24,000 bases of DNA from an uncultured Actinomycetota bacterium (GCA_963771675.1 CAVYUJ010000008.1:311855-335854); one strand, 5' to 3'; positions 4,440 through 20,840 are shown, counted from the stretch's first letter. The notes: generated from the letters alone by a model not told the origin. Translations and numbers: made by a program.

Positions 4440-4654
4440 CGCTCGCCTCGCCGAAGCACGATTCCCCCGAGGGAGAGGATCGACGGCACCCAGATGCCCA
4501 CGAAGATCCCCTCCTGCCTATGCCCTCCGAACCACAGCACCACGGAGATCACGAACGACACGAACGCGGCGAACAGGATCAACGCCCGGGCACTCGCCTC
4601 GGGACGGGTCTTGACCAGCGTCTGCACTTTCTCCATCGATCGACCTTGACGCAC
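4436..4654 (-). CDS. Small two-TM membrane protein, unknown family
   Basis: 72-aa ORF with two hydrophobic helices ('ALILFAAFVSFVISVVLWF', 'GIFVGIWVPSILSLGGIVL'). It starts at the GTG at 4654 or the ATG at 4636 (MEKVQ..). Confidence 0.5.
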   Translation of the reverse strand: MRQGRSMEKVQTLVKTRPEASARALILFAAFVSFVISVVLWFGGHRQEGIFVGIWVPSILSLGGIVLRRGER

Positions 4655-4663
4655 GGCCGGCGA

Positions 4664-4888
4664 TCAGCCAGCGCAGCCGTGAGCCGCCAGGACCGCCGGA
4701 TCGGCGAACGCGGCAGCACCGCCCTGCGCATGCTGACCGAGCCGGAATCCGGGCTCAAAGCTCGACACGATCTGCCCGAAGGACGCACCACAGGACGACT
4801 TGATGGCCTGGCCCGGTCCTTGCGCGCTGGCCAGCGAAGGGACGGCGAGGCCTGTTATGGCAAGAGAAGCGGTGAGAAACCTCTTCAT
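4664..4888 (-). CDS. Small secreted protein (74 aa, signal peptide, two Cys), unknown family
   Basis: 'MKRFLTASLAITGLAVPSLASAQG' looks like a Sec signal peptide. AAGGAG sits upstream of the ATG. This is the first gene of a four-gene minus-strand operon ending in fasciclin. Confidence 0.5.
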   Translation of the reverse strand: MKRFLTASLAITGLAVPSLASAQGPGQAIKSSCGASFGQIVSSFEPGFRLGQHAQGGAAAFADPAVLAAHGCAG

Positions 4889-4942
4889 GAGGACTCCTTG
4901 GGTCGGGGTTGTTCTCGGCCCGCCGTGAGCCGTCTCCGTTTC

Positions 4943-5035
4943 CTAGACTAGACAGACTCTCTACGGACTTTGGACAGCGTATCTAGTCGGGCCACTGCTG
5001 TCAAGCTTTCGTCGATAGTCTGTCGAAGGTGTCGG
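4943..5035 (-). promoter_or_regulatory. Candidate sigma-70-type promoter overlapped by 11-bp-periodic ACA repeats (LitR/CarH-like operator module, copy 1)
   Basis: On the minus strand: TTGACA (plus 4999-5004), 17 nt, TACGCT (plus 4976-4981). Repeats upstream are ACAGACTATCG/ACGAAAGCTTG/ACAGCAGTGGC. Repeats downstream on the opposite strand are ACAGACTCTCT/ACGGACTTTGG/ACAGCGTATCT. It aligns with the module at 19598-19672 (shared 'ACTCTCTAC(A/G)GAACTT', 'CTAGA'). Confidence 0.45.
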
Positions 5036-5477
5036 TGGCGGGGCTGACGCCGATGCCGGCGGTCCCCGGACGGACATCACGGACGGGCGGAGTCGCCGGT
5101 GCGTTGTCAAGCCGGGTTATGAGCGCTCCGCGTGGACGACTTGAATCGCATGATGCGCGCGCACGCCTGGCCTCGCATCGCGGCCGACTACTGTCGCCGG
5201 TCGGCGAAGACCCCCATTCCCGTGCCGGCGTTTGTGGGACCGGCGCTCTCGTTGTTCGGTGGGTAGGTGTGCCCCATCTCTTGGCTGGCTCCCGCTCCTC
5301 GGCGACGAAACGGGACCTGGCCGAGGTGAGCGGGATCCGACAGCCGCCGAGGGGATCCCGCGAGTCTCCGGTGGCCGGCTGACATGCCCCCCCGGCACGC
5401 GGAGTTCACAGGATCCCGTGAAACCCCGGTCACAGGGGCCCAGCCGCCTTGGCCGCGGAGGCGCACAAGGCGGCGGG

Positions 5478-5726
5478 ATGTCATTGCGGAGCCCCACCGG
5501 AGGGCAAGTGCGGCCGCCGAAGTTCTATGCGCTGCGCGTCTCCCGTTGCGGCGCGACTGCGGTGACGGTTGATGGCCGGTTCGCGGCGTTGGAGCCCGAC
5601 CGGGGCCATCCGACGGGGCGGGCGCGGTGCGTGAGGGGCAAGGCTGCTCCGGCGATCGTGGGTCATGACGATCAGGTGTTGTCTCCGCTGCGGAGGACGG
5701 CGCCGAAAGGAGCGGATGACGCGTTG
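5478..5726 (+). pseudogene. Possible N-terminal remnant of a molybdopterin (MopB-type) oxidoreductase, cut off by the htrA 3' end
   Basis: 'VTVDGRFAALEPDRGHPTGRARCVRGKAAPAIVGHDDQVLSPLRR' follows the pattern V.DGR...GD..HP...G..C.KG......PDRL..PL.R of MopB N-termini. The Cys cluster is not intact, and the ORF runs antisense into htrA. Confidence 0.3.
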
Positions 5727-6770
5727 TTAGCCGCTGGGGAGTTCGCCGAGGGTGACGGTTGTGGTCCGGCGGGTTCCGTTGGTGTTCTCGGCCGTGATGG
5801 TGACTTTGTCGCCGGGGCGGTGGTCGGCGAGTGCGGTCGCGAGGTCGCTGGCATCGGCGATGCCGGTGCCGTTGAGTTTGATGATGGCGTCGCCGGCTGT
5901 GATCCCGGCTTCGGCGGCTGGGCCGTTTGGCTGCACGGTGACGACGAGCGCGCCTGACCGGATGGGGGTGTCGGCGACGCTGACCGCGAGTGACGCTCGG
6001 CGGGAGTTGACCACGCGGCCGTAGCGGATGATCTGCCCGGCGATGTCGGTCACGGTGTTGCTGGGGATGGCGAAGCCGATGCCGGCGGCGGGACTGCCGA
6101 GCTGGGGGTTTGCCGCGGCCAGGGTGGGAATGCCGATCACCTGGGCTTGGAGGTTGATCAGTGCGCCACCGCTGTTGCCCGGGTTGATCGCGGCGCTGGT
6201 TTGGATGGTGTTGGGCAGCACGACGCCGCGCCCCTCGCTGACATCGCGGCCGAGGGCGCTGACGATCCCGTCGGTGACGCTGCTCTGCAGGCCGAGCGGG
6301 TTGCCGACCGCGAGGACGATTTCGCCCACGGCCAGTGTTGAGGAGTCGGCGAAGCGGGCCGGCTTGATGCCCTTACCGGCGCCGATCGTGACGACGGCGA
6401 GGTCGTCGGGCGGGTAGGCGCCGACGAGTCGCGCGGGGAACCGCCGCCCGTCGGCCAGCGTGACCTGCATCCTGGTAGCGCCCTGCAGAACGTGCGCGTT
6501 GGTGACAACGTTGCCCCTCGCGTCGAAGATCACGCCCGATCCCAGACCGGCGTCGGTGGCGATCTGCACGACCTGCGGCTGGGTGGCTTTGACGACCGCG
6601 ACGTACTGCGCCTGGAGCGCCGCCGCGGATGGCTGTGCCGCCGGCTGCGCCACTCCCTGTTGGCTGGTGGAGGTGCCGCTACCGCCGCCTCCGCAGCCGG
6701 CGAGCAAGATCGTCGCCGCGATCAGTGGCGCAAGCCAGCGCGGAGAACGAAGGGGTGCCCGACTGGTCAT
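5727..6770 (-). CDS. htrA: HtrA/DegP-family S1C serine protease with C-terminal PDZ domain, lipoprotein
   Basis: Catalytic motifs are 'TNAHV', 'DDLAVV' and 'GNSGGAL'. The PDZ domain contains 'GALVVTVQPNGPAAEAGITAGDAI'. The lipobox is 'LLAGC'. The ATG at 6770 is preceded by GGAGGTG. The track ORF start at 7112 is an upstream extension overlapping ftsH. Confidence 0.9.
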   Translation of the reverse strand: MTSRAPLRSPRWLAPLIAATILLAGCGGGGSGTSTSQQGVAQPAAQPSAAALQAQYVAVVKATQPQVVQIATDAGLGSGVIFDARGNVVTNAHVLQGATRMQVTLADGRRFPARLVGAYPPDDLAVVTIGAGKGIKPARFADSSTLAVGEIVLAVGNPLGLQSSVTDGIVSALGRDVSEGRGVVLPNTIQTSAAINPGNSGGALINLQAQVIGIPTLAAANPQLGSPAAGIGFAIPSNTVTDIAGQIIRYGRVVNSRRASLAVSVADTPIRSGALVVTVQPNGPAAEAGITAGDAIIKLNGTGIADASDLATALADHRPGDKVTITAENTNGTRRTTTVTLGELPSG

Positions 6771-6774
6771 TCGC

Positions 6775-9039
<2,265 letters not shown>

Positions 9040-9187
9040 GCTCTCGAGTCTCCTTTCGACTGAGCGCCGGAAATGTGTCGTTCAGCCGAAGGCCTCTCCC
9101 GCCCCAAAGGGCCGGCGTGCCCGGGCCACGTGGGCCGTACTGACGAGCGACGCCCGTTCGGGGATACTGCCCCCCGGCACCGCTCAG
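9040..9187 (-). promoter_or_regulatory. Conserved structured 5' leader of ftsH (copy A of a two-copy cis-regulatory RNA candidate)
   Basis: About 85% nucleotide identity with the region upstream of htpX (22472-22623). The closing helix is CUGAGCG..GCCGG / CCGGCGCUCAG, and its 3' strand ends 3 nt before the SD GAAAGGAG. The internal hairpins keep their stems but differ in their loops. Confidence 0.6.
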
Positions 9188-9271
9188 TGCAGCGTCGGGC
9201 CAACCGTCGCCACGAACTCCTGCGACCTGCAGGCCCGCGGCAGTTCGAGAGCCAAGGCGTCATCCTCCGGG

Positions 9272-10018
9272 TCATCGGGCCAGCTCCAGCGTGTTGAGCA
9301 TCTGGCCAAGGCGCTGGTCAAGCCCGGCTGACGACACGCCCAGCGTGCTGGCGATCCTGCCGCGGGGGATCCCGGCGATCATCATCGCGAGCACTGCCTG
9401 CTCCTCGCCGTCAAATACCTGGTGCATCCTGACCGCCACCGCGGGCGGGATCGTCGGCAATATCTGTCGGCCGGCGAGTGTGCTGCGGATCGTTTGGCAC
9501 AGCTCCGCGCCGGTGGCGGCTGTGCTGACGAGCGCGTCGGCCTCAGCGAGGACCGCCGCGGCGGCGAGCAGGCCGTTGGGATAGTCGCAGCGGAGCACGA
9601 CCCGGGGCGGTCGGGATAGGCGTTGGAGCGCCCTGCTGACCCACAGGCCATCGTGATCGCGGAGCTTGTAGTCGACGACGGCGGCGTCGATCCGCTCGCG
9701 CTCAGCAGTGGCGAGCGTCTCCTCGGCGGACGAGACCGCGGCGATGACGCGAAGGTTCGCCTGAGCGTCGAGCAGCTCTGATAATTCTCGGCGTGGCGCC
9801 AGATGATCGCCAGCGACGAGCACGCATGCCGGGCGCTCAGGCGCGGCATCAGCGAGCTCGGCAGGCGCAATAAAGACCCCGGTGTGCCGCCCGAGCGGCT
9901 GGAGCGCTGCGAGCAGACCGTGGTGCGCCGGCTTGGTGGGTGGCCCGCCGGCAAGACCGGGCACACCGGTTGTGGGTCGCGATCGGGGGATGCGTGATTG
10001 TGGGAGCGGGTAGGGCAT
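9272..10018 (-). CDS. Orphan response regulator, atypical receiver domain plus LuxR/FixJ-type HTH
   Basis: REC-like region: 'VLVAGDH...IDAAVVDYKLRDHDG...RVVLRCD...ADALVSTA'. The phospho-acceptor Asp is retained, but the first acidic pair is GD and the conserved T/S and K positions are not canonical. C-terminal LuxR-type HTH: 'EEQAVLAMMIAGIPRGRIASTLGVSSAGLDQRLGQMLNTL'. A Pro-rich N-terminal extension of about 60 aa is present if the ATG at 10018 is used. No histidine kinase is present in the window. Confidence 0.75.
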   Translation of the reverse strand: MPYPLPQSRIPRSRPTTGVPGLAGGPPTKPAHHGLLAALQPLGRHTGVFIAPAELADAAPERPACVLVAGDHLAPRRELSELLDAQANLRVIAAVSSAEETLATAERERIDAAVVDYKLRDHDGLWVSRALQRLSRPPRVVLRCDYPNGLLAAAAVLAEADALVSTAATGAELCQTIRSTLAGRQILPTIPPAVAVRMHQVFDGEEQAVLAMMIAGIPRGRIASTLGVSSAGLDQRLGQMLNTLELAR

Positions 10019-10025
10019 CGTCGGG

Positions 10026-10808
10026 TCAGGCGGGTTGGAGGGTTCCGGCGAACACTTGCCAGGCGAGGGCGGATTTGGCGAATAGGCTGAGCAGCATGTA
10101 GACGCGCTCGCCGTACAGGTAGTCGCGCCAGCGGCCGGCGCGGCGGTACTGCAGGGCCATGTTGAGGGCGAAGATGTTGAAGAAGGCGAAGATCGAGGCG
10201 TAGATCGCGTACACGAACGCGGGCGGGTCCTGGGCGCCGATCAGGTAGATCACCACGGCGATCCAGGGCACGATCCCGGCGAGGCAGCCGAACCAGTAGG
10301 CGGTCCAGTTGGTGCGTTTGGTGGTCTGGTTGTGCAGCTCCATGATCCAGCCGAACAGGATCATCGTGGCGTTGAGGGCGAAGATGAGGATCAGGCTGGC
10401 GATGTCGTAGATGCCGACGAGCATCGCGATCACGACCATCATCAGCGAGGAGGACAGGGAGTATTCGATCCAGCGGGCGGGCTGGATCCCGCGGGTGAGG
10501 TTGCGCTCATACCAGGCGTGCAGGCGCGGTGAGGCCAGCGCGGCGTGCGCGATTGCGGAGATGAGCAGGAACGCGGCGACCAGCGGGCCGATCCGCACCC
10601 GGAGCAGCTCGTCGGGGACGGCGACGAGCTTGTTCGTGGCGCTGTCCATGCGCAGGAACGCGCTGGTCACCGGCAGCGAGAACGAGCTGGCCAGCGCCAG
10701 GATCGCCAGCGCCTGGGTGAGGTGAAGGACCGAGAGTCCGGCGTTCCAGCGGCGCAGGCTGTGCAGCCGATCGGCGGCGGTGGGGGGAGAAGTGGTGAGC
10801 GTCGTCAT
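10026..10808 (-). CDS. Heliorhodopsin (HeR), 7-TM retinal protein
   Basis: Long stretches match heliorhodopsin 48C12 as I remember it. 'RWIEYSLSSSLMMVVIAMLVGIYDIASLILIFALNATMILFGW' vs 'RWVEYSLSSSVMIVLIAQICGIADIVALLAIFGVNASMILFGW'. 'WFGCLAGIVPWIAVVIYLIG' vs 'WFGCIAGIVPWIGLLIYVIA'. 'GERVYMLLSLFAKSALAWQVFAGTLQPA' vs 'GERAYIVLSLVAKSALAWQIFSGTLIPA'. The Schiff-base Lys (..FAKSALAWQ), counterion Glu (RWIEY) and both His positions are present. Confidence 0.9.
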   Translation of the reverse strand: MTTLTTSPPTAADRLHSLRRWNAGLSVLHLTQALAILALASSFSLPVTSAFLRMDSATNKLVAVPDELLRVRIGPLVAAFLLISAIAHAALASPRLHAWYERNLTRGIQPARWIEYSLSSSLMMVVIAMLVGIYDIASLILIFALNATMILFGWIMELHNQTTKRTNWTAYWFGCLAGIVPWIAVVIYLIGAQDPPAFVYAIYASIFAFFNIFALNMALQYRRAGRWRDYLYGERVYMLLSLFAKSALAWQVFAGTLQPA

Positions 10809-10830
10809 TGAAGCGGGCGGTAGACGGTCT

Positions 10831-10859
10831 GCAGGCCGCCGCGCGAAGCGGCGGCCTGC
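10831..10859 (-). terminator. 12-bp GC hairpin between the fasciclin-2 stop and the heliorhodopsin start (terminator/attenuator candidate)
   Basis: GCAGGCCGCCGC-GCGAA-GCGGCGGCCTGC (plus-strand reading). It lies in the 70-nt gap between 10879 and 10808. There is no U-tract. Confidence 0.45.
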
Positions 10860-10878
10860 CGAAGGGAGGGAGTGAGCG

Positions 10879-11382
10879 TCAGCGGGGGATCAGCACCTGG
10901 TTGATGACGTGGATCACGCCGTTGGAGGCGCCGATGTCGGCCTTGATGACGCGTGCGCCGCCGACCGTGACCGTGCCGTGGTTGACGCGAACCTTCAGCG
11001 ACTGGCCGTTGAGCGTCTTGATCGAGCGCAGCTTGACGACCTTCGCGGCGGTCAGCTTGCCCTTGGCCACGTGGTAGAGCAGGACCGCGCGCAGCTTCGC
11101 CTTGTCTTTGGCCAGCGCCTTCAGGGTCGCCTTGGGCACCTTCGCGAACGCCGCGTCGGTTGGGGCGAACACGGTGAGCGGCCCCTTGCCTTCAAGCGCG
11201 CCGGCCAGCCCCGCCTGCTTGACCAGCTTGACGAGCGTCTTGAACTGCCCGGCCGCGACGGCGGTCTGGACGATGTTGGGCTTGGCGGGCTTCGCCGACG
11301 CCATCGACACCACGGGCGCGATGGCCGAGAGTGACAACGCGCCGACGGCAGCCAGCGCTACGAACTGATGTTTGAACCTCAT
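10879..11382 (-). CDS. Fasciclin (FAS1) domain secreted protein, paralog 2
   Basis: The ATG at 11382 (MRFKHQF..) is preceded by AAGGAGA. It has a signal peptide and the same FAS1 motifs as 3696-4238 ('FKTLVKLVKQAGLAGALEGKGPLTVFAPTDAAF', 'NGVIHVINQVLIP'). The track ORF start at 11487 is an extension. Confidence 0.9.
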   Translation of the reverse strand: MRFKHQFVALAAVGALSLSAIAPVVSMASAKPAKPNIVQTAVAAGQFKTLVKLVKQAGLAGALEGKGPLTVFAPTDAAFAKVPKATLKALAKDKAKLRAVLLYHVAKGKLTAAKVVKLRSIKTLNGQSLKVRVNHGTVTVGGARVIKADIGASNGVIHVINQVLIPR

Positions 11383-11392
11383 CCCGGTCTCC

Positions 11393-11474
11393 TTAGACAG
11401 AGGTTTGACAATGATTGAACGAATGTACCCTCGTGGGCCGTCACTGTCAAGGTTCTGTCTAACGTGGGTATAAT
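11393..11474. promoter_or_regulatory. Divergent promoter region with a large inverted repeat and 11-bp-periodic ACA repeats (LitR/CarH-like operator module, copy 2)
   Basis: The inverted-repeat arms are TTAGACAGAGGTTTGACA (11393-11410) and TGTCAAGGTTCTGTCTAA (11445-11462). The minus-strand promoter is TTGACA (11445-11450), 17 nt, TACATT (11422-11427) for fasciclin-2. The plus-strand TATAAT (11469-11474) lies 6 nt before the litR GTG. The 14-mer TGTCAAGGTTCTGT is identical at 19647-19660. Confidence 0.5.
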
Positions 11475-11480
11475 GATTTC

Positions 11481-12347
11481 GTGTCATTTCCCGCAGAGGG
11501 TCTTCGGATCGGCGAGTTCGCCCGCCGGGTCGGTGTCAGCGCCGCGGTGCTGCGCGCCTGGGAGCGCCGGTACGGGCTGCTCGATCCGGTGCGATCGCCC
11601 GGTGGCTTTCGGCTCTACACCGCGCAGGACGCCGAGCGCGTCGGGCGGATGCAGCAGGGTCTCGATCAGGGCCTCTCGGCGGCCGAGGCAGCGCGCGCGG
11701 CGCGAGCGAGCGCCAGGCCCTCAGAAGGCCGCCTGCTCGAAGACGCAGCTGAACGCCTGCTGGCGGCGATCCGCGCCTACGACGAGCCCGGCGTGCACGA
11801 GGTCCTGGACGAGAGCTTCGCGGCGTTCGGCCTGGAAGCCGTGCTGCGCCAGCTCATCCTTCCCGCCCTCACGCAGGTCGGGGCCGAGTGGGAGCAGGAG
11901 ACGCTCGCGGTCAGCCAGGAGCACTTCGCCAGCAACGTGATCCGCGCCCGGCTGCTGTCCCTGGCCCGCTTATGGGGCCGCGGCGGGGGACCGGTGGCGG
12001 TCCTGGCCTGCGCCCCCGGCGAGCAGCACGACATCAGCCTGCTGGCCTTCGGACTGGTGCTGCGATCGCACGGCTGGCGCATCATCTTCCTGGGCGCCGA
12101 CACGCCGATCACCACGCTGGCGCAAGCCGCCGAGGGCACACGGCCCACGCTGACCGTCCTGGCCAGCTTTGACCCGGCGCTCCTGGAGGTGGAGTCAACC
12201 GCCATCCGCCGCCTCGCGAGAGAGCTCCCGCTCGTGCTGAGCGGTCCCGGGGCAACCGAGCAGCTGTGCAAGAGGCTTCGCGTGCCGCGGCTCGACGGCG
12301 ACCTGATCATCGCAGCCCATGAGATCGCCCGCAGCACAACGGCCTGA
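11481..12347 (+). CDS. litR: MerR-family, B12-binding-domain transcriptional regulator (LitR/CarH-type light-responsive regulator)
   Basis: The N-terminal MerR HTH is 'LRIGEFARRVGVSAAVLRAWERRYGLLDPVRSPGGFRLY'. The Wx9EH signature 'WEQETLAVSQEH' of AdoCbl-CarH-type photoreceptors is present. The B12-binding-domain His motif is 'GEQHDIS', followed by a Rossmann-like 'RIIFLGADTP'. The GTG start lies 6 nt after TATAAT, which suggests a leaderless mRNA. Confidence 0.85.
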   Translation: MSFPAEGLRIGEFARRVGVSAAVLRAWERRYGLLDPVRSPGGFRLYTAQDAERVGRMQQGLDQGLSAAEAARAARASARPSEGRLLEDAAERLLAAIRAYDEPGVHEVLDESFAAFGLEAVLRQLILPALTQVGAEWEQETLAVSQEHFASNVIRARLLSLARLWGRGGGPVAVLACAPGEQHDISLLAFGLVLRSHGWRIIFLGADTPITTLAQAAEGTRPTLTVLASFDPALLEVESTAIRRLARELPLVLSGPGATEQLCKRLRVPRLDGDLIIAAHEIARSTTA

Positions 12348-12843
12348 CGCGTCCTGGGCCAGGCGGATTATCGCGCTGGTCCTCGAGAACCCCGGGGACG
12401 CGGTTTACGGGGCGATCGCCGTGGGCGCTCTGCTCGCGGCCGAGACTCCGCGGCAGGAGACGTACGCCAAGACCGTCGCGGCAGTGATCATCACGCTCTT
12501 GCTCTACTGGCTGGCGCACTCCTACGCCGACCTGGCCGGAGAACGGCTGCGATCGGGCGCGAGGCTGACCGCCCAAGGGCTGTTGGCGAGGATGCTGCGC
12601 GAGCTGCCGATCCTCATCGGCGCGGCAATCCCGCTGGGCACGCTGCTGATCTGCTGGATCGCCGGAACCGGCCTGTCCGCCGCCGTCCTCGCGGCGGTGT
12701 GGACCTCGGCCGGGATCATCCTGGTCATCGAGCTGGCCGCCGGACTCCGCGGCCGCCTCAGGGGCCGGCAGCTGCTCTCCCAAGCCCTCGTCGGCGCGTC
12801 GCTCGGATCGCTGATCATCCTCCTCAGGGCGCTGCTCCACTGA
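12319..12843 (+). CDS. Integral membrane protein, unknown family (about 4-5 TM)
   Basis: 174-aa ORF with hydrophobic helices ('AVYGAIAVGALLAA', 'VAAVIITLLLYWLAH', 'LPILIGAAIPLGTLLICWIAG', 'AAVLAAVWTSAGIILVIELAA'). It overlaps the litR 3' end by 29 nt. Confidence 0.55.
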   Translation: MRSPAAQRPDASWARRIIALVLENPGDAVYGAIAVGALLAAETPRQETYAKTVAAVIITLLLYWLAHSYADLAGERLRSGARLTAQGLLARMLRELPILIGAAIPLGTLLICWIAGTGLSAAVLAAVWTSAGIILVIELAAGLRGRLRGRQLLSQALVGASLGSLIILLRALLH

Positions 12844-12885
12844 TACGCCAGTGCCGGAACTGCGGGCCACCGCCGACTTCGCCCG

Positions 12886-12935
12886 CCCGGCTCGACGGCG
12901 ACCTCGTCAGCACCGCACACGGCGCGGTCCCCTGA
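12886..12935 (+). repeat. Second, diverged copy of the litR 3' end (orphan gene fragment)
   Basis: The 16-mer GGCTCGACGGCGACCT is identical at 12288-12303 and 12888-12903. The in-frame translation 'RLDGDLVSTAHGAVP*' parallels the litR C-terminus 'RLDGDLIIAAHEIARSTTA*'. Weaker similarity extends about 40 nt upstream. Confidence 0.5.
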
Positions 12936-12950
12936 CCGCGCGTCTCCCGG

Positions 12951-13416
12951 TTACCAGCCGAGCGTGCCGGGTGGTCCTTTGAACGGGCCGGTCAGGTCGG
13001 AGGTGATCCAGCCTCCGTAGAAGTCGCTCTCCTGCGCGTGAACGCGCTCGTCGTCCAGCCAGGCCGCGTCGACGCGTCCGGGGTAGAAGGCGACGTGATC
13101 GCGCAGCGCCTCATACTCGGGCGCCGGGTTCGGGTAGCACCAGCCCACCGCGATGCATCGCCGTCCGTCGACGATCGCGTCGAGATACCGTGCGGCGCCC
13201 TTGAACTCGCACCTGGTCGGGCGTGTCCGGCTCTCGGTCAGGAACGTCGCGGCGAACGTCTGCCGGTGGGATGTAGATCGTCGGTGGATGGCTGGTCTCG
13301 AGCACCCGCAGAGCATGGGTGGACTCGGCGAGCACTTCCCCGGCCAGCTCGACTCGGACCCGACGCCGGCAGGGCACGACCGCGGGTGGCCGCGGGTACT
13401 CCCAGACGCGCTCCAT
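12951..13416 (-). pseudogene. DUF427 domain protein, frameshifted
   Basis: The N-terminal part 'MERVWEYPRPPAVVP..RVRVELAGEVLAEST..LRVLETSHPPTIYIPPADV' is in ORF 13111..13647. The C-terminal part 'TRCEFKGAARYLD...VAFYPGRVDAAWLDDERV..QESDFYGGWIT' is in ORF 12951..13316. The frames switch at about 13255-13270. Confidence 0.8.
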
Positions 13417-13427
13417 CCTCCGCTCGC

Positions 13428-14376
13428 CTAGCCCGCGCCCGCCGGCGTGGCAGCGAGGCGGCGGAGCTCGGCGTCCTCGGCGACCGCGCGGCGGAGCGCT
13501 TCGTCGAAGCTGACCGGTTGGATCTCGAACAGCTCCATCCCGGAGCGGTCGGTGACAACGGTCGGGACCGCCAGTCCCTCGATCAGCGGCCGTGCCACAC
13601 CGGCGTCGACCGGGGTGACGAGCCCGATCCACAGCGATGACAGCCACGGGGTGATCAGCGGCACGGGGATCCGCGGGCGGTGCGCGATGCCGAGCACCGC
13701 GGCCATCCGGTCGAGCATCTCGCCGTAGGACAGGACGTCCGGGCCGCCGATCTGAATCTCCCTGCCGGCCGACTCCTCAATGTCCAGCGCCTGCGCCAGG
13801 TAGCTCAGGGTGTCCTCGATCGCGATCGGCTGGGTGGGGTTCTGCAGCCAGGCGGGTGCGATCATCGCGGGCAGTCGCTGGACCAGGTAGCGCAGCGTGC
13901 GGTAGGACTCGCTCTCCGGGCCGACGACCATCCCCGCCCGGAAGTACGTCAGTGGCGGCCCGTGCTCGCGCAGCAGTCAGCGCCGTCTCGTGGCGGCTGC
14001 GCAGGTGCCGGAGTGCGGGCGCTCACCGAGACCGCCCAGGTAGAGCACGCGCCCGATTCCCTCCTCGTACGCCATGCGAGCGAAGGCGGTCGCGCCGGCG
14101 CGCTCGCGGGCCTCGAACTCCGCGCGTCCGCCGCGGCCCATCGAGTGGATCAGGTAATAGGCCGCGTCGATCCCGCGGCCGGCGCCACGGAGCGTCTCCG
14201 GGCGCAGGACATCCCCCTCGCGCAGGTCGAGTCCGTCGTCTTCGAGCGCGCGCCGCCCGGCTCCCGTGGCGGTCGCGGACGAGGCATCGCACCTCGTGCC
14301 CGGACGCGGCGAGGGTTCGCGCGAGACGGCCGCCGATGAACCCGGTCGCGCCGGTGACCAGCACGCGCTGACTCAT
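13428..14376 (-). pseudogene. NAD(P)-binding NmrA/atypical-SDR-like protein, multiple frameshifts
   Basis: The N-terminus 'MSQRVLVTGATGFIGGRLARTLAASGHEVRCLVRD' is in ORF 14023..14376 and then becomes garbled. The middle part ('IDAAYYLIHSMGRGG..', 'VLYLGGLGE') is in other frames, with an in-frame TGA near 13978. The C-terminus 'YFRAGMVVGPESESYRTLRYLVQRLP...' is in ORF 13428..13931. There are at least 3 shifts. The start overlaps the SRPBCC stop as ATGA (14373-14376). Confidence 0.8.
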
Positions 14377-15287
14377 GCCGCGGCCGCTTCCGCGGGGGGT
14401 TCGGGCCTGAGCGCGGTCGCCAGGCGCTCGGCCTTCTCCTGCTCAAAGCCGCCGAGCTCGCAGGCCAGGATCCGGCCGGAGCGCTCAACGACCAGGACGG
14501 CGATCGTGCCGGTGCCGGCGAGCCCCAGGTTCTCGACGACCTTCGGGACGTCGGTGTAAACGGTGACGGTGCGGGCGCGCGCGGCGGGATCCGGGATGCC
14601 GCGGGTCATGCCGCCGTCGATGAACCACCGGACGGGGCTGTAGGTCGACGAGAGCACGGGCAGCTCGTACACCGCGACGTCCGTGCGGCGCTGCTCGAGC
14701 CGGGTCAGCCACGGCAGCCACCGATCGACGAGCCCCTGCTGCTCGCGGCGGAAGGCAACCACAAGGAGGTTGTAGGGCTTGGCTAGATCGCCCGGCAGCT
14801 CATAGCTGCGGCCGTCGAGCGAGCGACCGCTCAAAGCGCTCAGCGCCTCCGGCTGCACTGGCGCCAGCTTGTGCTTGAGACCTGCGAGGGCGCGGTCGCC
14901 GACGCGATGGAACACGAGCCCCAGGAGCGGGTCGGCGAGCCGCAACGGTCCCTTGAGCAGGAGCTCGGCGTCGTAGGTGATCCGGGTGCCCTCGCCGAGT
15001 GCTTCGAAGGTGATCCTGTCGTTTGAGATCACGCTGGCGTTCTCGCCGCGGAAGGTCACCGCGCGTGGCGGGTCGTACTCGACGATCCGGTAGGTGATCG
15101 GCGTCTTGCGGCCGAGGAACTCGGCGACCAACCGGAACTCGGTCCCCTCCCCGACGGCGGCTTCGCTGCACCGTTCGGCCTCGACCACCCCCGGGTCCCA
15201 TTCCTGGGTGCTCGAGAAATCGCTGATGTAGGCGAACACGTCCTCGCGTTCGCGCGGTGTGTCAATCGTTGCTCGGTAGCGAGCCAT
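14373..15287 (-). CDS. SRPBCC (polyketide cyclase/START-like) domain protein fused to a C-terminal domain of about 150 aa with unknown fold; intact
   Basis: The ATG at 15287 (MARYRATIDTPREREDVFAYISDFSSTQEWDPGV..) is preceded by AAGGAGA. The 304 aa contain no interruption. The C-terminal half ('LPGDLAKPYNLLVVAFRREQQ..WLPWL..') looks redoxin-like but has no CxxC. The track ORF start at 15458 is an extension. Confidence 0.75.
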   Translation of the reverse strand: MARYRATIDTPREREDVFAYISDFSSTQEWDPGVVEAERCSEAAVGEGTEFRLVAEFLGRKTPITYRIVEYDPPRAVTFRGENASVISNDRITFEALGEGTRITYDAELLLKGPLRLADPLLGLVFHRVGDRALAGLKHKLAPVQPEALSALSGRSLDGRSYELPGDLAKPYNLLVVAFRREQQGLVDRWLPWLTRLEQRRTDVAVYELPVLSSTYSPVRWFIDGGMTRGIPDPAARARTVTVYTDVPKVVENLGLAGTGTIAVLVVERSGRILACELGGFEQEKAERLATALRPEPPAEAAAA

Positions 15288-16275
15288 CGTGTTTCTCCTT
15301 CTCTGAGGTGGTGGTGTGCTGCGCCCAGCCGCTGAGCTGGGCGCACCGCGCCCAGAGCTGCTCGCGCTCCTGCTGGGTCTCTCGTGTCCACGGGAGCAGG
15401 TGCGTGGGCCGCGGCCGGCGGTCGTGCCAGAACCGGCCCGTGCTGCGGCCGGGCTCATCCGCGGCGCCGAGCCAGACGATCGTGTCGGCGCCCTGCTCGG
15501 GCGTCCTCAGCAGCGGTCGCGTCGGCCTGTAGAACCGCGGCAGGGAGGTCTGCACGCCCGGGGTGTCGACCCATCCGGGGTGCATCGAGTGCACGACGAC
15601 GCCGCGAGCTCGCGCAGCCGCTGCGCCCACAGTTCGGTGAGGATCACCTGCGCGCGCTTGGTCCGCGCGTACGCCGCCGGCCCGTCGAACTCTCCGCGCT
15701 CGCTCTGCAGGTCATCGGCCCTGATCCGCTGCGTGTACATGCCGCCGGAGGAGACGTTGACGATCCGCGCCGGAGCGCTGCGCTCCAGCAGCGGCAGCAG
15801 CAGAGCCGTGAGCAGGAACGGGCCGAGCACGTTGGTCGCGAACGTCACCTCGATCCCGTCCGGCGACAGCGCGCGGGTCGGGGGCAGGACGCCGGCGTTG
15901 TTGACCAGCACGTCGAGGCGGTCTGCCTGCGCTGTGAAGCGCTCGGCGAACTGCCTGACCGACTGAAGATCGCTCAGATCACACAGCCCGACATGCACGT
16001 CGCGGTTGCCGGACCGCTCCGCGATCCCCGCGCGCGCCCGCTGGCCGCGTTCCGCGCTGCGGACGACCAGCCACACGGTCGCGCCGAGGCGCGCGAACCC
16101 CTCCGCGGCCGCGAGCCCGAGCCCCGAGCTGGCGCCCGTCGACCATCACCACCCCGCCGTCCAGCGACGGGAGCTCCGAGGCGCTCCAGCCGCGACGGCG
16201 GATCCGGTAGCCCACGTTCGTGTAGCCACCGATCACGCTGCGGTCAAGCACGCTGTCGAGCACGGAACCCGTCAT
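15262..16275 (-). pseudogene. Short-chain dehydrogenase/reductase (SDR), two frameshifts
   Basis: There are three frame pieces. The first is 'MTGSVLDSV...GGVVMV' followed by an extra base in GTCGACGGG (about 16139-16142). This restores 'TGASSGLGLAAAEGFARLGATVWLVVRSAERG...NNAG...SSGGMY...YARTKRAQV' (ORF 15507..16076). A second shift near 15600-15615 leads to 'VVVHSMHPGWVDTPG...' (ORF 15262..15630). Confidence 0.8.
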
Positions 16276-17531
16276 GCGCTCGCCGCCAGATCGTGCGGCC
16301 CGCTCCGACCCGGCCGTCCACGCGCTGGGCGGAGGGGAGTTGAGAGTGGGGCTTGGTCAGCAGCAGCTGGACGTCGCAGATCCGCCGCTCGGCGAATCCG
16401 GCCTCGCAGTAGGCGAGGTAGAGCGTCCAGAGCCGGCGGAAGCGCTCGTCGTAGCCCGAGCTCCGCGAGCCGTCGGCGTGGGCGCTGAAGTTCGTCGCGC
16501 CAGCGCCGCAGCGTCTCGACGTAGTGGGCGGTGATGTCCTCGAGACCAGCGACCTGCATGTCGGTTCGCCGGGCGACGTCGCGGGTGATGCACCTCGAGC
16601 GAGGGCAGGCACCCGCCCGGGAAGATGTAGGTGTTGATGAACGACTTCGCTGCCTTCTCGACCTCGTAGGCGCGGTCATCGATCGTGATCGCCTGCAGCA
16701 GCATCGCCCCGTCGGGCGCGAGCAGCTCCGAGCACTTGGCGAAGAACGTGCCGAACTGCGCGCCAGCCGACCGCCTCGATCATCTCGATCGAGACGAGCT
16801 TGTCGTAGCGGCCGCGCAGGTCGCGGTAGTCCTCCATCAGCACGGTGACCCGGTCCTCCAGTCCGGCCCGCCGCACCTGCTCGAGCGCGTAGTCGTGCTG
16901 CTCGCGCGAGATCGTCGTCGTGGTGACGTGGCAGCCGCGGGTCGCTGGCGGCGTAGAGCGCGAACGCTCCCCAGCCGGTTCCGATCTCGAGCACGCGATC
17001 CCGCGGACCGAGCTCGAGCGTCTCGCAGATCCGCTCGAGCTTTGCGACCTGAGCCTGCTCGAGCGTCATCCCGTGGTGCTCGAACACCGCGCACGAGTAG
17101 CTCATCGTCGGATCGAGCATCCGCGCGAACAGCTCGTTGCCGAGGTCGTAGTGGGCGGCGATGTCGCGCCGGCGCGCGCCGCCGCGTGGCGCGGACGCAG
17201 CGAGCGCGCGGCGCGCTGCAGCGGCCAGCCGCACCGGCGCCAGCCGCGCGCGAAGGCGGTCGAGGCCGCCGGCGTTGCGCGCCGCGAGCCTGATCACCGC
17301 GACCAGGTCCGGCGAGTCCCACAGGCCCTCGAGCGTACGCCTCCGCCAGTCCGCGGCTGCCGCGCAGCAGCATCGGCCAGACTCGCGAGGAGTGCAGATC
17401 GAACCGTCGCGACCGGGGGCCCGGAGCCGTACGCGTGCCGCTCGCCGTCCTCGACGACGACCAGGCGTGCCGACACTCGATCCGCCGCAGCAGGATCGAC
17501 ACGATCCAGCGGGACGCGCGTCGACGGTCAT
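16272..17531 (-). pseudogene. Cyclopropane-fatty-acyl-phospholipid-synthase-like SAM-dependent methyltransferase, at least 5 frameshifts
   Basis: Family-typical pieces are scattered over three frames: 'RLVVVEDGERHAYGSGPPVATVR', 'LLRGSRGLAEAY', 'LWDSPDLVAVIRL...DIAAHYDLGNELFARMLDPTMSYSCAVFE...VLEIGTGWGAFALYAA', 'TTISREQHDYA..RVTVLMEDYRDLRGRYDKLVSIEMIEAVG', 'LLQAITIDDRAYEVEKAAKSFINTYIFPGGCLPSL', 'DITAHYVETLRRWR', 'RFRRLWTLYLAYCEAGFAERRICDVQLLLTKP'. The stop of one frame overlaps the SDR ATG as ATGA (16272-16275). Confidence 0.85.
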
Positions 17532-18283
17532 GCGCCGACCGCCTTCGGGTGCGGGTGGACGCGGCACGCCGGCGAGCTTCAGCGCCAGCGCGTGCGCGTA
17601 GATCAGCGCCAGCACGCGCACCGTGCGCGAGCGGGTAGCGCGCGGTCATCCGCGCCATCGACGCACGGGTCAGCTCCCGGCGGCGCAGCGACGAGCGTCG
17701 CGTCGAACACGGCGCGTCGCCCGCGCGGCTCGAGTCGATGTGGACCGACAGCGTCCGGCCCGGCGCGGTCGCCCGCGCGTCGTAGCGGTGATCCATGCCC
17801 ATGAACGGCGACACGTGCATCGCCTTCTCGAACTGCGCCGTGAGCACGCCGCCAGTCCGGCGCCGGCCGCAGCACGTAGGCGTGCCGCTCCCCCCAGGGC
17901 GTGTTCGTCACCTCCGCGACCACCGCCTCGCACGCGCTCGCCGGCCGGGTCGAAGCAGTAGTAGAAGCTGACCGGGTTGAAGCAGTGCCCGAACGAGCGC
18001 AGCTGGGTCAGCACGCGGATCGGGCCCGCCGGGCCGCTCGCCGGTCGTGCTCGCTGCACCGCTCGCGCACCGCGCGGTCGAGCGGCACGCGCGGGATCGC
18101 CGAGGTAGTCGCGGCGGCGAAAGCGGACCAGCCCCGGGACGCGGGCGACGAGCCGGCCGCCCAGCAGCCGCGGCAGCTCGTCGAGGTCGATGTAGGCGAG
18201 CGCCAGCCGATGGCGTGAACTCGCGCCGCGGCTCGCGAGCGCCGGTGGCGAATCGTGCCCTCGTAGATGCAGCTCGCGCTCAC
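17532..18283 (-). pseudogene. DUF1365 family protein, multiple frameshifts
   Basis: Pieces: 'SCIYEGTIRHRR', 'LAYIDLDELPRLLGGRLVARVPGLVRFRRRDYLGDP', 'IRVLTQLRSFGHCFNPVSFYYCFD', 'VAEVTNTPWGERHAYVL', 'KAMHVSPFMGMDHRYDARATAPGRTLSVHID', 'RVLALIYAHALALKLAG'. They lie in different frames. The boundaries are approximate. Confidence 0.8.
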
Positions 18284-19534
18284 AGCCGTGCTCCGAAGCG
18301 CTCGGCCGACGCGCAGCGCGCTCGCCACGCCGTCCTCGTGGAACCCCCAGCCCCAGTACGCGCCGCAGAAGTGCGTGCGGTTGCGCCCGTCTGATCTCGT
18401 GCGACCCGCGCCTGCGCCTGCACCCCGCCGTCCGTGTACACCGGATGCGCGTAGGGGATCGTGCGGATGACCCGAGCCGGGATCGATCGCCTCGGTGCGG
18501 TTGAGCGTCACGCAGAACTCGCGCTCGGCGCGCAGCGACTGCAGGCGGTTCATGTGGTAGGTGACCGTGCGTCGCCGCCTTGGGCTCGGCGAGCAGGTGG
18601 TAGTTCCAGCTCGCCCACGCCCGCCGGCGACGGGGCAGCATCCGCGCATCGGTGTGCAGCACGGCCTCGTTGGGCTGATACGGGATCGCGCCGAGGATCT
18701 CGCGCTCGCGGCCGCTGGCGTCGGCCAGCAGCGCCAGCGCCTGGTCCGAATGGGTCGCCAGCACCACCTCGTCGAACCGCTCCGCCTCGCCGCCCGCGCG
18801 GCGTCACCAGGACGTGATCATGATGGCGGGTGACCGCCTGAACCGGGGTGCGCAGCCGCAGCCGGTCGCGAGAACGGAGCCGTCAGCGCCTCGACGTACC
18901 GAGCCGAGCCCCCGCGAATCGTCCGCCAGCGACGGCCGGCCGCGGAACGACAGCATCCCGTGATTGTCGAAGAACTCGGCCAAGAAACGAGCCGGGAAGC
19001 TCCACATCTGCCGCGGCGTCCGCCGACCACACCGCCGAGGCCTGCGGCACGATCAGCCGCTCGATGAACGCATGTGAGAACCGATGCTGCTCCAGCCACT
19101 CGCGCAGCGAGAGCATCGGGCGCACGATCATCGAGCAGCTCACGCGCGGCACGGTTGAACCGCGCCAGGTCGGCGACCATGCGGTGAAACCAGGGGGTGA
19201 CGAGATGTGCTCGTTTGGCGAACAGGGCGTTCGGTGAGCCGCTGCCGTACTCGAAATCGCCGATGCCGTCGCTGACGCTGAAGCTCATCGTCGACGGCTG
19301 CCACGCGACGCCCAGCCGCCGGAGCAGCCGCTCGAAGTTCGGGTAGTTGCGATCGTTGAACACGATGAACCCCGTGTCGACCTCGTGCGTCTCGTCCGCC
19401 GTGTCGACCCGGATCGTGTTCGTGTGACCTCCGGCATACCCGGCTGCCTCGAACACCGTGACCTCGTGCGCCGGGTGCAGCAGATGGGCGACCACCAGTC
19501 CGGAAACACCTGCGCCAACCACAGCGATCTTCAT
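18284..19534 (-). pseudogene. FAD/NAD(P)-binding amine-oxidase-like oxidoreductase, at least 6 frameshifts
   Basis: The N-terminus 'MKIAVVGAGVSGLVVAHLL..VTVFEAAGYAGGHTNT' (GxGxxG) is intact to 'FNRAARELLDD' (shift at about 19115-19125 in 'catcgggcgc'). The following pieces are each in a new frame: 'MLSLREWLEQHRFSHAFIERLIVPQASAVWSAD', 'MWSFPARFLAEFFDNHGMLSFRGRP', 'WRTIRGGSARYVEALTAPF', 'DRLRLRTPVQAVTRHHDHVLVTPRG', 'FDEVVLATHSDQALALL...AIPYQPNEAVLHTDARMLPRRR.AWASWNY', 'TVTYHMNRLQSL..', 'HFCGAYWGWGFHEDG'. Confidence 0.85.
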
Positions 19535-19597
19535 GCCCCACCTACCGCGACGGCGCTAACGACCATACGAATCTCTTGCAACCCGACCACACTCTCT

Positions 19598-19672
19598 ACA
19601 GAACTTCGACAACCTTGTGCCGAGTCTAGCGACATGGCCCTCCTTTTGTCAAGGTTCTGTTCAAGGTTTGTA
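19598..19672 (-). promoter_or_regulatory. Candidate promoter of the 7-gene operon, overlapped by 11-bp-periodic ACA repeats (LitR/CarH-like operator module, copy 3)
   Basis: On the minus strand: ACAAACCTTGA/ACAGAACCTTG/ACAAAAGGAGG, with ACA every 11 nt. TTGACA is at plus 19647-19652, followed by 18 nt and TAGACT at plus 19623-19628. On the opposite strand downstream are ACAGAACTTCG/ACAACCTTGTG (19598-19619). 'AACCTTGACAA' fits the published CarH half-site pattern nAnnTnnACAn. Confidence 0.5.
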
Positions 19673-20840
19673 CCGGCTGTGCGCTCGGGCCCGGATGCCC
19701 GGGCTCTGGCCAATTCGTGGCTGCTCGACCAAGCGGTTGAAGGTGCGGCGGTGCCGCTTCGTGGGAGATGGGTCGCTCGTCCGGAGAACCTGGCGCGAGG
19801 CTCTCGCTGGGGTGACGCGGCGCGCGGGTCTGCTCTGGCAGGCGGGTTGTTGGGGTGGCGTCGTGGTGGTGCTGTCGTAGCGCTCCGGCGTGGGCGTGAG
19901 CGGTCGGATCGCGTCGGGCCTTGATCAGGCTGGCGACGGTGGTCGCCGCGAGCACCGCCGCGATGAGCGCAAGGGACGGTCCGGTGGGTATCTCGGGGAT
20001 GGAGTGATGTTGCTGGTGGGCGAATTCGAGGACGAGCTTGGCGCCGATGAAGGCGAGGATCGCGGCGAGGCCGGTTGAGAGGTAGATGAGCCGGCCCAGC
20101 AGGCCGGAGATCAGGAAGAAGAGGGCGCGCAGGCCGAGCAGCGCGAAGGCGTTGGCGGCGAAGACGATGTAGGCGTGATCGGTGACGCCGAACACGGCGG
20201 GGATCGAGTCGAAGGCGAAGAGGAGGTCGGTAGTGCCGATCGCCAGCAGCGCGAGGAGCAGCGGCGTGAACGCCCGGCGGCCGTGGCGGCGGGTGATGAT
20301 TCGACCGTGGTCGTAGGTGTCGGTGATCGGCAGCTTCCGCCGGGCGGCTGCGACGAGCGCGTTGTCTTCGACGCTCGGGTCGTGGTTACGGTGGCGGTAG
20401 AGCTGGACGGCGGTCGCGAGCAGCGTCAGCCCGAAGATGAGGAACATGAACGAGAAGGTGGCCAGCAGCGCGGCGCCGAGCGCGATGAACACCGCCCGCA
20501 GCGCGAGCGCGATCACGATCCCGATCGTCAGCACCTTGGGCTGCTGCTCGGCCGGGACGGCGAACGCGCCGAGGATGATCACGAACACGAACAGGTTGTC
20601 GACCGACAGGCTCTTCTCGACCAGGTAACCGGCGAAGTACTGGGTGGCGAGATCCCAGCCGGCGATCGCGCCGATCCCGAGGCCGAACAGCACCGCGACC
20701 GCGATGTAGAACAGCGACCAGCGGAGCGCCTCACCAAGCGAAACCCTGCGTGATCGACGGCCGAGCAGCAGCCAATCGAGCGCAAGCAGCCCCGTGATCA
20801 GCGCCAGCGTGAGGACCCAGACCGCAGCGCTGAAATGCAC
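19626..20840 (-). CDS. terC: TerC-family integral membrane protein
   Basis: The TerC core is 'YFAGYLVEKSLSVDNLFVFVIILG..' and '..GTTDLLFAFDSIPAVFGVTDHAYIVFAANAFALLGLRALFF'. The likely GTG start at 20840 is preceded by AAGGGAAG. The track ORF start at 21215 overlaps exoD. The unusually long hydrophilic C-terminal tail (about 90 aa) runs into the promoter module at 19626-19672. Confidence 0.8.
   Translation of the reverse strand: MHFSAAVWVLTLALITGLLALDWLLLGRRSRRVSLGEALRWSLFYIAVAVLFGLGIGAIAGWDLATQYFAGYLVEKSLSVDNLFVFVIILGAFAVPAEQQPKVLTIGIVIALALRAVFIALGAALLATFSFMFLIFGLTLLATAVQLYRHRNHDPSVEDNALVAAARRKLPITDTYDHGRIITRRHGRRAFTPLLLALLAIGTTDLLFAFDSIPAVFGVTDHAYIVFAANAFALLGLRALFFLISGLLGRLIYLSTGLAAILAFIGAKLVLEFAHQQHHSIPEIPTGPSLALIAAVLAATTVASLIKARRDPTAHAHAGALRQHHHDATPTTRLPEQTRAPRHPSESLAPGSPDERPISHEAAPPHLQPLGRAATNWPEPGHPGPSAQPVQTLNRTLTKGGPCR

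Follow-up and report, generated by a model that had tools for sequence, protein, structure and literature searches.

What reads the tandem 11-nt repeats that recur at three promoters within a single stretch of bacterial DNA, ahead of genes as different as secreted fasciclins and a lipid-modification operon? The stretch in question (the window) comprises 24,000 nucleotides with a G+C content of 69% from an uncultured Actinomycetota bacterium (GCA_963771675.1, CAVYUJ010000008.1:311855-335854). An earlier sequence-only reading had proposed that these sites are operators of the adjacent LitR/CarH-type regulator, and that they define a regulon made up of both fasciclin operons, litR and the lipid operon. 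We found at all three promoters a specific motif, conserved in relatives and linked there to the same genes, beside a regulator that carries the features of the CarH family. From this we infer that the three sites are very likely operators of a class I LitR/CarH repressor (11481-12347), predicted to repress four promoters and to release them in the light. The proposed regulon thereby gains support from the match to the CarH repeat, from a weight matrix built on other genomes and from the gene linkage seen in relatives.

The CarH operator has been described as three or four tandem 11-bp units of the form nnnnTnnACAn, lying over the -35 or the -10 element (PMC9304148). Here a full match to this unit is written DR, and a pseudo-repeat with 3/4 specified bases is written dr. 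All three promoters lie on the minus strand, with the hexamers and spacers that had been described for them: TTGACA-17-TACGCT, TTGACA-17-TACATT and TTGACA-18-TAGACT. At site 1, the -35 element (TTGACA, 5004-4999) and the -10 element (TACGCT, 4981-4976) stand 17 nt apart in a composite operator at 4945-5030. Its minus-strand array consists of DR 5030-5020, dr 5019-5009 (ACG) and DR 5008-4998, which holds the -35 element, while the opposite array, on the plus strand, consists of DR 4945-4955, dr 4956-4966 and DR 4967-4977. Site 2 fills the intergenic region between litR and fasciclin-2 (composite operator 11390-11476). Here the promoter P_fas2 (11422-11450) has its -35 element (TTGACA, 11450-11445) in the third unit of the minus-strand array, dr 11476-11466 (ACC), DR 11465-11455 and DR 11454-11444, and its -10 element (TACATT, 11427-11422) 17 nt away, with the plus-strand array formed by DR 11390-11400, DR 11401-11411 and dr 11412-11422. 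At site 3 (composite operator 19591-19678), 18 nt separate the -35 element (TTGACA, 19652-19647) from the -10 element (TAGACT, 19628-19623); the minus-strand array is made of dr 19678-19668, DR 19667-19657 and DR 19656-19646, again holding the -35 element, and the plus-strand array of DR 19591-19601 and DR 19602-19612.

The register of these units bears out the claim that tandem 11-nt units run into the -35 element and that oppositely oriented units lie past the -10 element. At each of these predicted promoters the last unit of the minus-strand array contains the TTGACA of the -35 element and the opposite array abuts or overlaps the -10 element; its two to three units span the -10 element, the start site and the early transcript. 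Measured from the -35 unit, the opposite units lie at 25/36/47 bp at site 1, 26/37/48 bp at site 2 and 27/38/49 bp at site 3, so that the unit distances differ by 1-2 bp and the architecture is equal to within 2 bp across the three sites. For P_fas2, the start is predicted near 11415, giving a 33-nt leader that bears the opposite array. A generic sigma-70 scan recognised P_fas2 alone and, in 3400-12500, no other of these sites; sites 1 and 3 have weaker -10 hexamers. The 14-mer TGTCAAGGTTCTGT does, as had been noted, recur without change at 11445-11458 and 19647-19660, and these are its sole copies in the window. The further sequence said to be common to the first and third copies, ACTCTCTAC(A/G)GAACTT, is exact at 19591 in site 3, but site 1 reads ACTCTCTACGGACTTT, which is one base shorter; the CTAGA attributed to the same two copies is present in both and is trivial.

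We then asked how specific the motif is. Searching the window with the CarH consensus repeated three times, TNNACA(N5)TNNACA(N5)TNNACA, and allowing at most one mismatch in the 12 specified positions, we obtained five matches in 24 kb, all of them within the three sites, against a mean of 0.02 in 100 shuffles; the consensus is matched by both arrays at sites 1 and 2 and by the upstream array at site 3. A 36-nt weight matrix was then derived from sequences upstream of litR in 49 other genomes (LitR identity 46-80%), leaving out the three closest relatives of the window. In its information profile over the 49 genomes, T5 and A8C9A10 recur as the conserved positions of every unit, 11 bp apart, with variable spacer positions between them. 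In the window, the matrix scored 44.8, 33.8, 29.7, 26.8, 19.0, 11.6 and 7.1 at the three sites: site 2 accounts for 44.8 (11443-11478) and, in its weaker opposite array, 7.1; site 1 for 29.7 and 26.8; and site 3 for 33.8 and 19.0. Distinct loci elsewhere in the window all scored below 0, and the sole other positive score (0.7) is an 11-nt-shifted match inside site 3. In 200 Markov shuffles, the maximum per 24 kb had a mean of -5.4, a 95th percentile of 1.4 and a highest value of 9.7. This matrix from other genomes therefore picked out just the three sites in the window. Two other readings were rejected. The first, that the motif is a generic -35 context, fails because TTGACA also stands at 5105, 7446 and 15260 in the window, there without repeats and without a matrix score, and the matrix finds nothing else; the second, that these are promoters for an extracytoplasmic function (ECF) sigma factor, as in the ChrR and SigK regulons, fails because no sigma/anti-sigma gene was found among the window ORFs scanned and because the hexamers are of the housekeeping type (TTGACA / TAnnnT).

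The regulator itself is encoded by litR, on the plus strand at 11481-12347, with Pfam matches to MerR_1, B12-binding_2 and B12-binding. Its N-terminal helix-turn-helix (HTH) domain at residues 9-75 matches MerR_1 (E 2.9e-14) and MerR (E 1.9e-12), and B12-binding_2 scores 50.9 bits against a cutoff of 23. Its alignment with CarH of Thermus thermophilus (structures 3whp and 5c8d) covers residues 9-268, with an E value of about 1e-33. In published CarH structures, the Wx9EH motif lies over the upper face of the cofactor and the histidine of an ExHxxG-like motif serves as the lower axial cobalt ligand. The W-x9-EH of LitR (WEQETLAVSQEH) aligns with the corresponding W..EH of T. thermophilus CarH, and the histidine of its GEQHD is aligned with that of GERHE, although the glycine after the histidine motif is a serine in LitR. 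These two features, Wx9EH and the ExH histidine, reportedly mark adenosylcobalamin-dependent photosensitivity in the structures of Jost et al. 2015. By its sequence, the window regulator is thus assigned to class I, the adenosylcobalamin-dependent LitR/CarH proteins.

Might LitR bind these sites without sensing light, acting constitutively or independently of ligand like CarA, or as a reporter of B12 or redox state, so that the regulon would not be light-controlled? B12-independent CarH paralogues such as CarA do exist, as do LitR classes II-V, and the Rossmann B12-binding domain of LitR falls just under its Pfam cutoff. We nevertheless consider this unlikely, since both Wx9EH and the histidine of the ExH motif align with T. 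thermophilus CarH, and since the content of the regulon (a furan-fatty-acid-type operon, fasciclin and a rhodopsin) is typical of responses to light or singlet oxygen.

Site 2 also bears on the control of litR itself. The predicted promoter P_litR (plus strand, 11469-11483) has its -10 element, TATAAT (11469-11474), on the first unit of the minus-strand array, and 6 nt later comes the GTG start codon at 11481. The same distance of exactly 6 nt between the -10 element and the start codon is found in 42/62 distinct relatives, and because the start codon lies so close in the window and in these relatives alike, the litR mRNA is probably leaderless. Many relatives have TGTATAAT, an extended -10 element that doubles as the third repeat unit. 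A single array at site 2 is thus predicted to repress both divergent promoters and to make litR autoregulated. Just downstream, on the same strand, a gene for a 174-aa membrane protein (12319-12843) extends across the stop codon of litR, and the two genes probably share a transcript; it follows litR only in the closest relatives (L002-L004, L083 and L085).

The comparative check that the earlier reading had called for, whether the motif accompanies litR orthologues and precedes fasciclin genes in relatives, was made on 80 litR loci totalling 927 kb. Relatives with LitR at 62-93% identity are metagenome-assembled genomes (MAGs) of Solirubrobacterales, Solirubrobacteraceae and Conexibacteraceae, while LitR at 46-53% identity comes from Gaiellales and other actinobacterial MAGs; an identical LitR protein is encoded on a short Logan contig. 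A litR-upstream site equivalent to site 2 is kept in about 70 of the 80 loci, and some of the fasciclin, TMa and lipid-operon genes have operators of their own. In these loci, litR is divergent from one to three fasciclin genes, from genes for two small membrane proteins and a fasciclin (TMa-TMb-fasciclin), from a small DUF378-like gene and a fasciclin, or from an operon running from amine oxidase to DUF427. It is directly divergent from fasciclin-type genes in about 45/80 loci, and from the lipid operon in L010, L015 and L018, while the lipid operon has its own operator in L006, L007, L030, L031 and L084. In 14 relatives, the TMa-TMb-fasciclin group stands in this order next to litR with its operator, and in L004 and L083 the group carries a separate operator. 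Matrix matches away from litR, counted at 14 bits or more, were few: TMa/TMb/fasciclin in L004, fasciclin in L068, the SDR/SRPBCC/amine-oxidase operon in L006, L007, L030 and L031, and litR paralogues in L004 and L050. Since every target group of the window is found next to litR and its operator in some genome, these data support a conserved regulon. One exceptional match, a convergent double array at 7159-7260 in L010, lies upstream of an open reading frame (ORF; 7270-8379) for a 369-aa secreted repeat-rich protein of no family, which is a candidate for an extra regulon member in that genome.

Two of the closest relatives, L004 (1070-1986) and L083, carry a second LitR-like gene just 3' of fasciclin-1, at 41% identity, with Wx9EH kept and with an operator-like site of its own. 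In the window, a 40-codon 3' remnant of this gene remains at 3536-3655, beside the HTH/integrase-fragment region; as only this remnant is left, most of the paralogue gene and its promoter have been deleted.

Such a paralogue, or the response regulator encoded downstream of heliorhodopsin, might be the true reader of the repeats, leaving LitR a mere neighbour. The paralogue's place beside fasciclin-1, with its own operator-like site, speaks for this, as does the position of the response regulator in the fasciclin-2/heliorhodopsin transcript. Against it, the motif tracks litR through most of the sampled genomes, always over the litR -10 element, and matches the CarH repeat consensus unit for unit; the three sites are intact in the window even though the paralogue has been lost from it, and the response regulator is missing from most motif-bearing litR loci. 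We regard another reader as distinctly improbable.

Within the window's own lineage, the convergent geometry is conserved, with opposite units at 37/38 and 48/49 bp in 20-23 of 32 relatives, whereas those with LitR below 60% identity have up to seven same-strand units in register instead. The membership of the regulon is thus conserved while the layout of its operators is plastic, which argues for function and not for inherited sequence. That promoter DNA on a strong housekeeping -35 element was simply duplicated along with the fasciclin paralogues, without operator function, is for these reasons highly improbable: the fasciclin genes are indeed paralogous and the 14-mer is shared by sites 2 and 3, but the conservation of T5 and A8C9A10 is position-specific, site 3 drives a non-paralogous operon, the distant-genome matrix finds only these sites while the other TTGACA copies are without repeats, and the differently arranged operator that L004 has at its orthologous TMa promoter points to selection on function.

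If LitR is indeed the repressor, the system could work as follows. In the dark, B12-loaded LitR oligomers would bind the tandem 11-bp TnnACA repeats, occupying the three-unit array at the -35 element of each minus-strand promoter, with the distal unit of site 2 also lying over the litR -10 element. The opposite array would cover the -10 element, the start site and the early transcribed region, and between them the two arrays would keep RNA polymerase off four promoters. In the light, as expected from the family, photolysis of the Co-C bond would cause the oligomer to fall apart and the promoters to fire. This would release one transcript for a secreted peptide, TMa, TMb and the fasciclin-1 lipoprotein; a second for secreted fasciclin-2, continuing at a reduced level beyond a GC hairpin into heliorhodopsin and the response regulator; a third for litR and the membrane protein; and a fourth for the UfaD/UfaO/UfaM-like lipid operon. 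The output would be an envelope response to photo-oxidative stress.

Several points weigh against this account. The third opposite unit at site 3 is degenerate, and the closest relative has a different layout at TMa (four same-strand repeats), making the architecture plastic; a layout of two convergent arrays has no precedent in characterised CarH systems, and the stoichiometry of binding and the role of the downstream array are guesses on our part. For the regulator, the Rossmann B12-binding domain scores 30.8 bits, just under the Pfam cutoff of 32.1, and the NCBIfam CarH model NF052513, by far its best NCBIfam match, gives 150.5 bits (E 5.5e-44) where the cutoff is 400, so that the equivalog level is not reached and LitR is a divergent member of the family. 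How specific the motif is across the whole regulon we extrapolate from about 0.95 Mb of DNA, in which litR neighbourhoods are over-represented, and binding, repression, the light response and read-through are steps that we infer. Finally, the frameshifts in the lipid operon described below would, if real, mean that the organism no longer has a working lipid branch of the regulon.

The operon behind site 1 comprises four minus-strand genes (3696-4888). The first (4664-4888) is an ORF for a 74-aa secreted peptide with a third-position G+C fraction (GC3) of 0.72 and no homologue in any fetched locus; TMa (4436-4654) and TMb (4275-4439) follow, and the operon ends with fasciclin-1 (3696-4238; Pfam Fasciclin, E 1e-39), a lipoprotein with the lipobox LAAC in its translation. 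Pfam and NCBIfam assigned no family to the 74-aa peptide, TMa, TMb or the 174-aa membrane protein downstream of litR. Fasciclin-2 (minus strand, 10879-11382; Pfam Fasciclin, E 4e-41) is a Sec-secreted protein with a single FAS1 domain and a visible signal peptide, and the two fasciclin genes are paralogous, with 69% identity over 300 nt. The relatives of fasciclin-2 in the Protein Data Bank (PDB) include the Rhodobacter sphaeroides FAS1 protein 1w7d (4e-28), MPT70 (1nyo, 5e-16) and algal astaxanthin-binding FAS1 proteins, and by analogy with the last of these suggest a role for fasciclin-2 in carotenoid or lipid binding. In L088, L092 and L093, three tandem fasciclin paralogues lie between the litR operator and heliorhodopsin, pointing to repeated local FAS1 duplication within the regulon. 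In L004, the TMa promoter has four same-strand units spanning -35 to -10, directly upstream of TMa. The window segment 4647-9058, with the 74-aa ORF, site 1, a gene-free stretch of 690 bp, htrA and ftsH, is replaced by about 530 bp in L004 and L083 (L004 3038-3566), while a metagenome contig, L082, has the same order of heliorhodopsin, response regulator, FtsH and HtrA as the window, and so indicates that the window arrangement is real.

Heliorhodopsin (minus strand, 10026-10808; Pfam Heliorhodopsin, E 8e-100) follows fasciclin-2, and 7 nt 3' of it comes the response regulator (minus strand, 9272-10018), with a match to Pfam Response_reg and NarL-like NCBIfam matches. The latter is called as 183 aa on a Logan contig and probably has an internal true start; it is likely to be the last gene of the fasciclin-2/heliorhodopsin transcript, and the pair is kept in L004, L082 and L083. 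Most of the 70-nt gap between fasciclin-2 and heliorhodopsin is filled by a GC hairpin (minus strand, 10828-10862) with a perfect 12-bp core stem, a 5-nt loop, no U tract and a fold energy of -34.5 kcal/mol (z = -2.8). As this gap leaves no room for a promoter, heliorhodopsin can be reached only through the hairpin. In a sample of 13 metagenome loci with heliorhodopsin at least 77% identical, the order fasciclin then heliorhodopsin is seen in 11/11 loci with upstream sequence, and litR with its operator lies upstream in all six contigs reaching that far; in L084, a further operator lies between heliorhodopsin and the amine-oxidase operon. A strong hairpin of different sequence occupies the same place in 11/12 fasciclin-heliorhodopsin junctions, often followed by a GAAGGAGG ribosome-binding site; a U tract is absent in all 11 loci, and a consensus terminator scan made no call. 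The hairpin probably either attenuates transcription as a terminator or stabilises the fasciclin mRNA at its 3' end, and could act as an actinobacterial terminator or stabiliser of the kind without a U tract. The suggestion that heliorhodopsin is co-induced by read-through from the fasciclin-2 promoter is therefore plausible, given the short gap and the conserved synteny, but the strong conserved hairpin means that induction may be partial, and owing to it heliorhodopsin and the response regulator are probably expressed below fasciclin. Heliorhodopsins of less than 70% identity show no link to litR or fasciclin, so the association is clade-specific. A published survey lists MerR-family, TerC and SDR genes among frequent heliorhodopsin neighbours, and does not read the neighbouring MerR gene as a LitR controlling heliorhodopsin (PMC11109279).

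Site 3 precedes a minus-strand operon of seven genes (12951-19534), which Pfam assigns, in order of transcription, to an amine-oxidase (UfaD-like; Amino_oxidase/NAD_binding_8, ~18302-19534), DUF1365 (UfaO-like, ~17626-18212), CMAS (UfaM-like, ~16313-17514), SDR (~15325-16293), SRPBCC (14373-15458), NmrA-like (13428-14382) and DUF427 (12951-13316) families. UfaO is a DUF1365 protein and UfaD is amine-oxidase-like; together with the CMAS-like UfaM they lead to furan fatty acids, which scavenge singlet oxygen (PMC7380195). By its gene content, the window operon is likely of this furan-fatty-acid type. Compared with its 90%-identical counterpart in L004, it contains about 30 single-base insertions across 15608-19534, densest at 16140-18304 (27 in 2.2 kb) and outside homopolymers. 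These split the amine-oxidase, DUF1365, CMAS, SDR and NmrA-like genes into several frames, the gene calls being fragments, and we therefore mapped the frames against the intact homologues of L010 and L020. An apparent separate ORF of 167 aa (13428-13931) was rejected in this way, being the C-terminal part of the frameshift-split NmrA-like gene. The operon genes are intact in L002, L004, L010 and L020, and in the window FtsH, HtrA, heliorhodopsin, LitR and the fasciclins are intact; the one-sided bias towards insertions suggests local consensus error and not natural decay. Such errors could also affect the spacing at site 3, which is one base longer. Upstream, the terC ORF extends about 30 codons (19626-19721) past the TerC homology, which ends near 19721; this non-conserved stretch runs through site 3, with its stop codon TAG forming part of the -10 hexamer TAGACT; this 3' tail is probably a chance ORF extension. 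The junction of terC and amine oxidase in which site 3 lies is present in no fetched locus.

How does this system compare with known ones? Like CarH and class I LitR in Thermus thermophilus, Bacillus megaterium and Myxococcales, the window regulator combines a MerR HTH, a four-helix bundle with Wx9EH and a Rossmann B12 domain with its histidine ligand; and as in their operators, tandem 11-bp nnnnTnnACAn units, one of them with the -35 TTGACA, lie in a divergent intergenic region and control, here by prediction, the regulator's own gene. It differs in that the operators characterised for CarH consist of one array, with three to five units on the same strand, whereas at each window promoter two arrays converge at a distance of about 26 bp. 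Known CarH targets are, moreover, mainly carotenoid genes, of which the window has none, its predicted targets being fasciclins, small membrane proteins, a heliorhodopsin transcript and a ufa-like operon. At site 3, the closest parallel is the regulon of class II LitR (PplR/PmlR), in which a LitR-family repressor sits over the same lipid module: in Pseudomonas putida and P. mendocina, it is known from experiment to control the light induction of ufaM and of neighbouring FAD-oxidoreductase and SDR genes (PMC9758184). Class II LitR has no B12 Rossmann domain and relies for photoreception on a short LOV protein, and the accessible text on it mentions no fasciclin or rhodopsin targets.

Fasciclins have appeared in light-related regulons before. 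In R. sphaeroides, the fasciclin RSP_1409 is induced by singlet oxygen as part of the RpoE-ChrR regulon, together with the RSP_1087-1091 operon (PMC7074977), and an Azospirillum fasciclin under RpoE-ChrR acts in photo-oxidative stress, according to work cited in PMC10949492. The claim that light control is an undescribed function for bacterial FAS1 proteins was therefore too strong. The likeness extends to the rest of that regulon, which brings RSP_1409 together with RSP_1087-1091 (UfaD, UfaO and SDR) and ufaM under photo-oxidative stress. It is governed, however, by an ECF sigma/anti-sigma pair that senses singlet oxygen, where the window has a B12 photoreceptor repressor, and a Pfam scan of the 30 main window ORFs found no sigma domain and no ChrR/RskA-type anti-sigma domain.

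In Mycobacterium tuberculosis, MPT83 is a FAS1 lipoprotein and MPT70 a secreted FAS1 protein, while Rv0447c-0449c presumably encode an amine oxidase, a DUF1365 protein and ufaA1. The SigK-RskA regulon thus resembles the window in pairing a lipoprotein and a secreted FAS1 protein (fasciclin-1 with a lipobox, as MPT83; fasciclin-2 with a Sec signal, as MPT70) with the same lipid operon, but it is controlled by an ECF sigma factor and has no LitR. It comprises the mpt70/mpt83 locus and the sigK locus from the Rv0449c promoter, and its inducing signal is not known (PMC7509140). The window system therefore resembles the RpoE-ChrR and SigK regulons in output and is not a member of either. Literature searches that paired fasciclin with LitR or with CarH turned up only papers on eukaryotic subjects of no relevance here, and those for fasciclin with heliorhodopsin returned nothing; control of a fasciclin by a B12 photoreceptor, with a heliorhodopsin transcript in the regulon, appears undescribed.

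A more speculative idea, which we put forward tentatively and think more doubtful than not, is that fasciclin and the furan-fatty-acid-type operon form one ancient photo-oxidative envelope module, wired to a B12 photoreceptor here, to RpoE-ChrR in alphaproteobacteria and to SigK-RskA in mycobacteria. If so, the signal for SigK (MPT70/MPT83) in M. tuberculosis would descend from a response to light or singlet oxygen; secreted FAS1 proteins would carry carotenoids or oxidised lipids, like the algal astaxanthin-binding proteins; and, in this clade, one photoreceptor of the B12 type would govern the expression of another, heliorhodopsin, along with its response regulator, in a two-tier light cascade. 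The occurrence of the fasciclin and ufa-type pair under three unrelated regulators yields a hypothesis for the function of bacterial FAS1 proteins and for the mycobacterial SigK signal. While the proposed mechanism is ordinary for the CarH/LitR family, the value of the locus lies in its targets and its double-array operator. It would add secreted fasciclins, small membrane proteins and a heliorhodopsin transcript to the carotenoid genes among the targets of CarH/LitR, and provide a sequence-level B12-photoreceptor regulon for Solirubrobacterales (Thermoleophilia), represented here by uncultured soil and sediment MAGs alone. It also gives heliorhodopsin, a protein of debated function, a transcriptional context: predicted to be light-induced, co-transcribed with a response regulator and placed behind an attenuating hairpin.

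The remainder of the window was annotated with Pfam. Its left end carries an integrase fragment and an HTH gene, followed by the fasciclin-1 group, HtrA, FtsH, the response regulator, heliorhodopsin, fasciclin-2, litR and the membrane-protein gene; its right part holds the long minus-strand lipid operon and then terC, exoD and an M48 protease. Scans of the whole window with Rfam (at the gathering threshold) and for tRNAs gave no match. Between site 1 and the end of htrA, a gene-free stretch of about 690 bp (5035-5727) has no convincing ORF, Rfam match or tRNA; it contains the minus-strand TTGACA at 5105, without repeats. A repeat of about 185 bp, 85-93% identical and without an Rfam match, occurs at 9010-9194 and 22442-22628, where it makes up the upstream region, ribosome-binding site and roughly the first ten codons (MSITATR...) of ftsH and of the M48/HtpX-like protease gene, and may be a common regulatory leader of these two membrane-protease genes. 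The breakpoint of synteny between the window and L004 (9058/9059) falls within this repeat.

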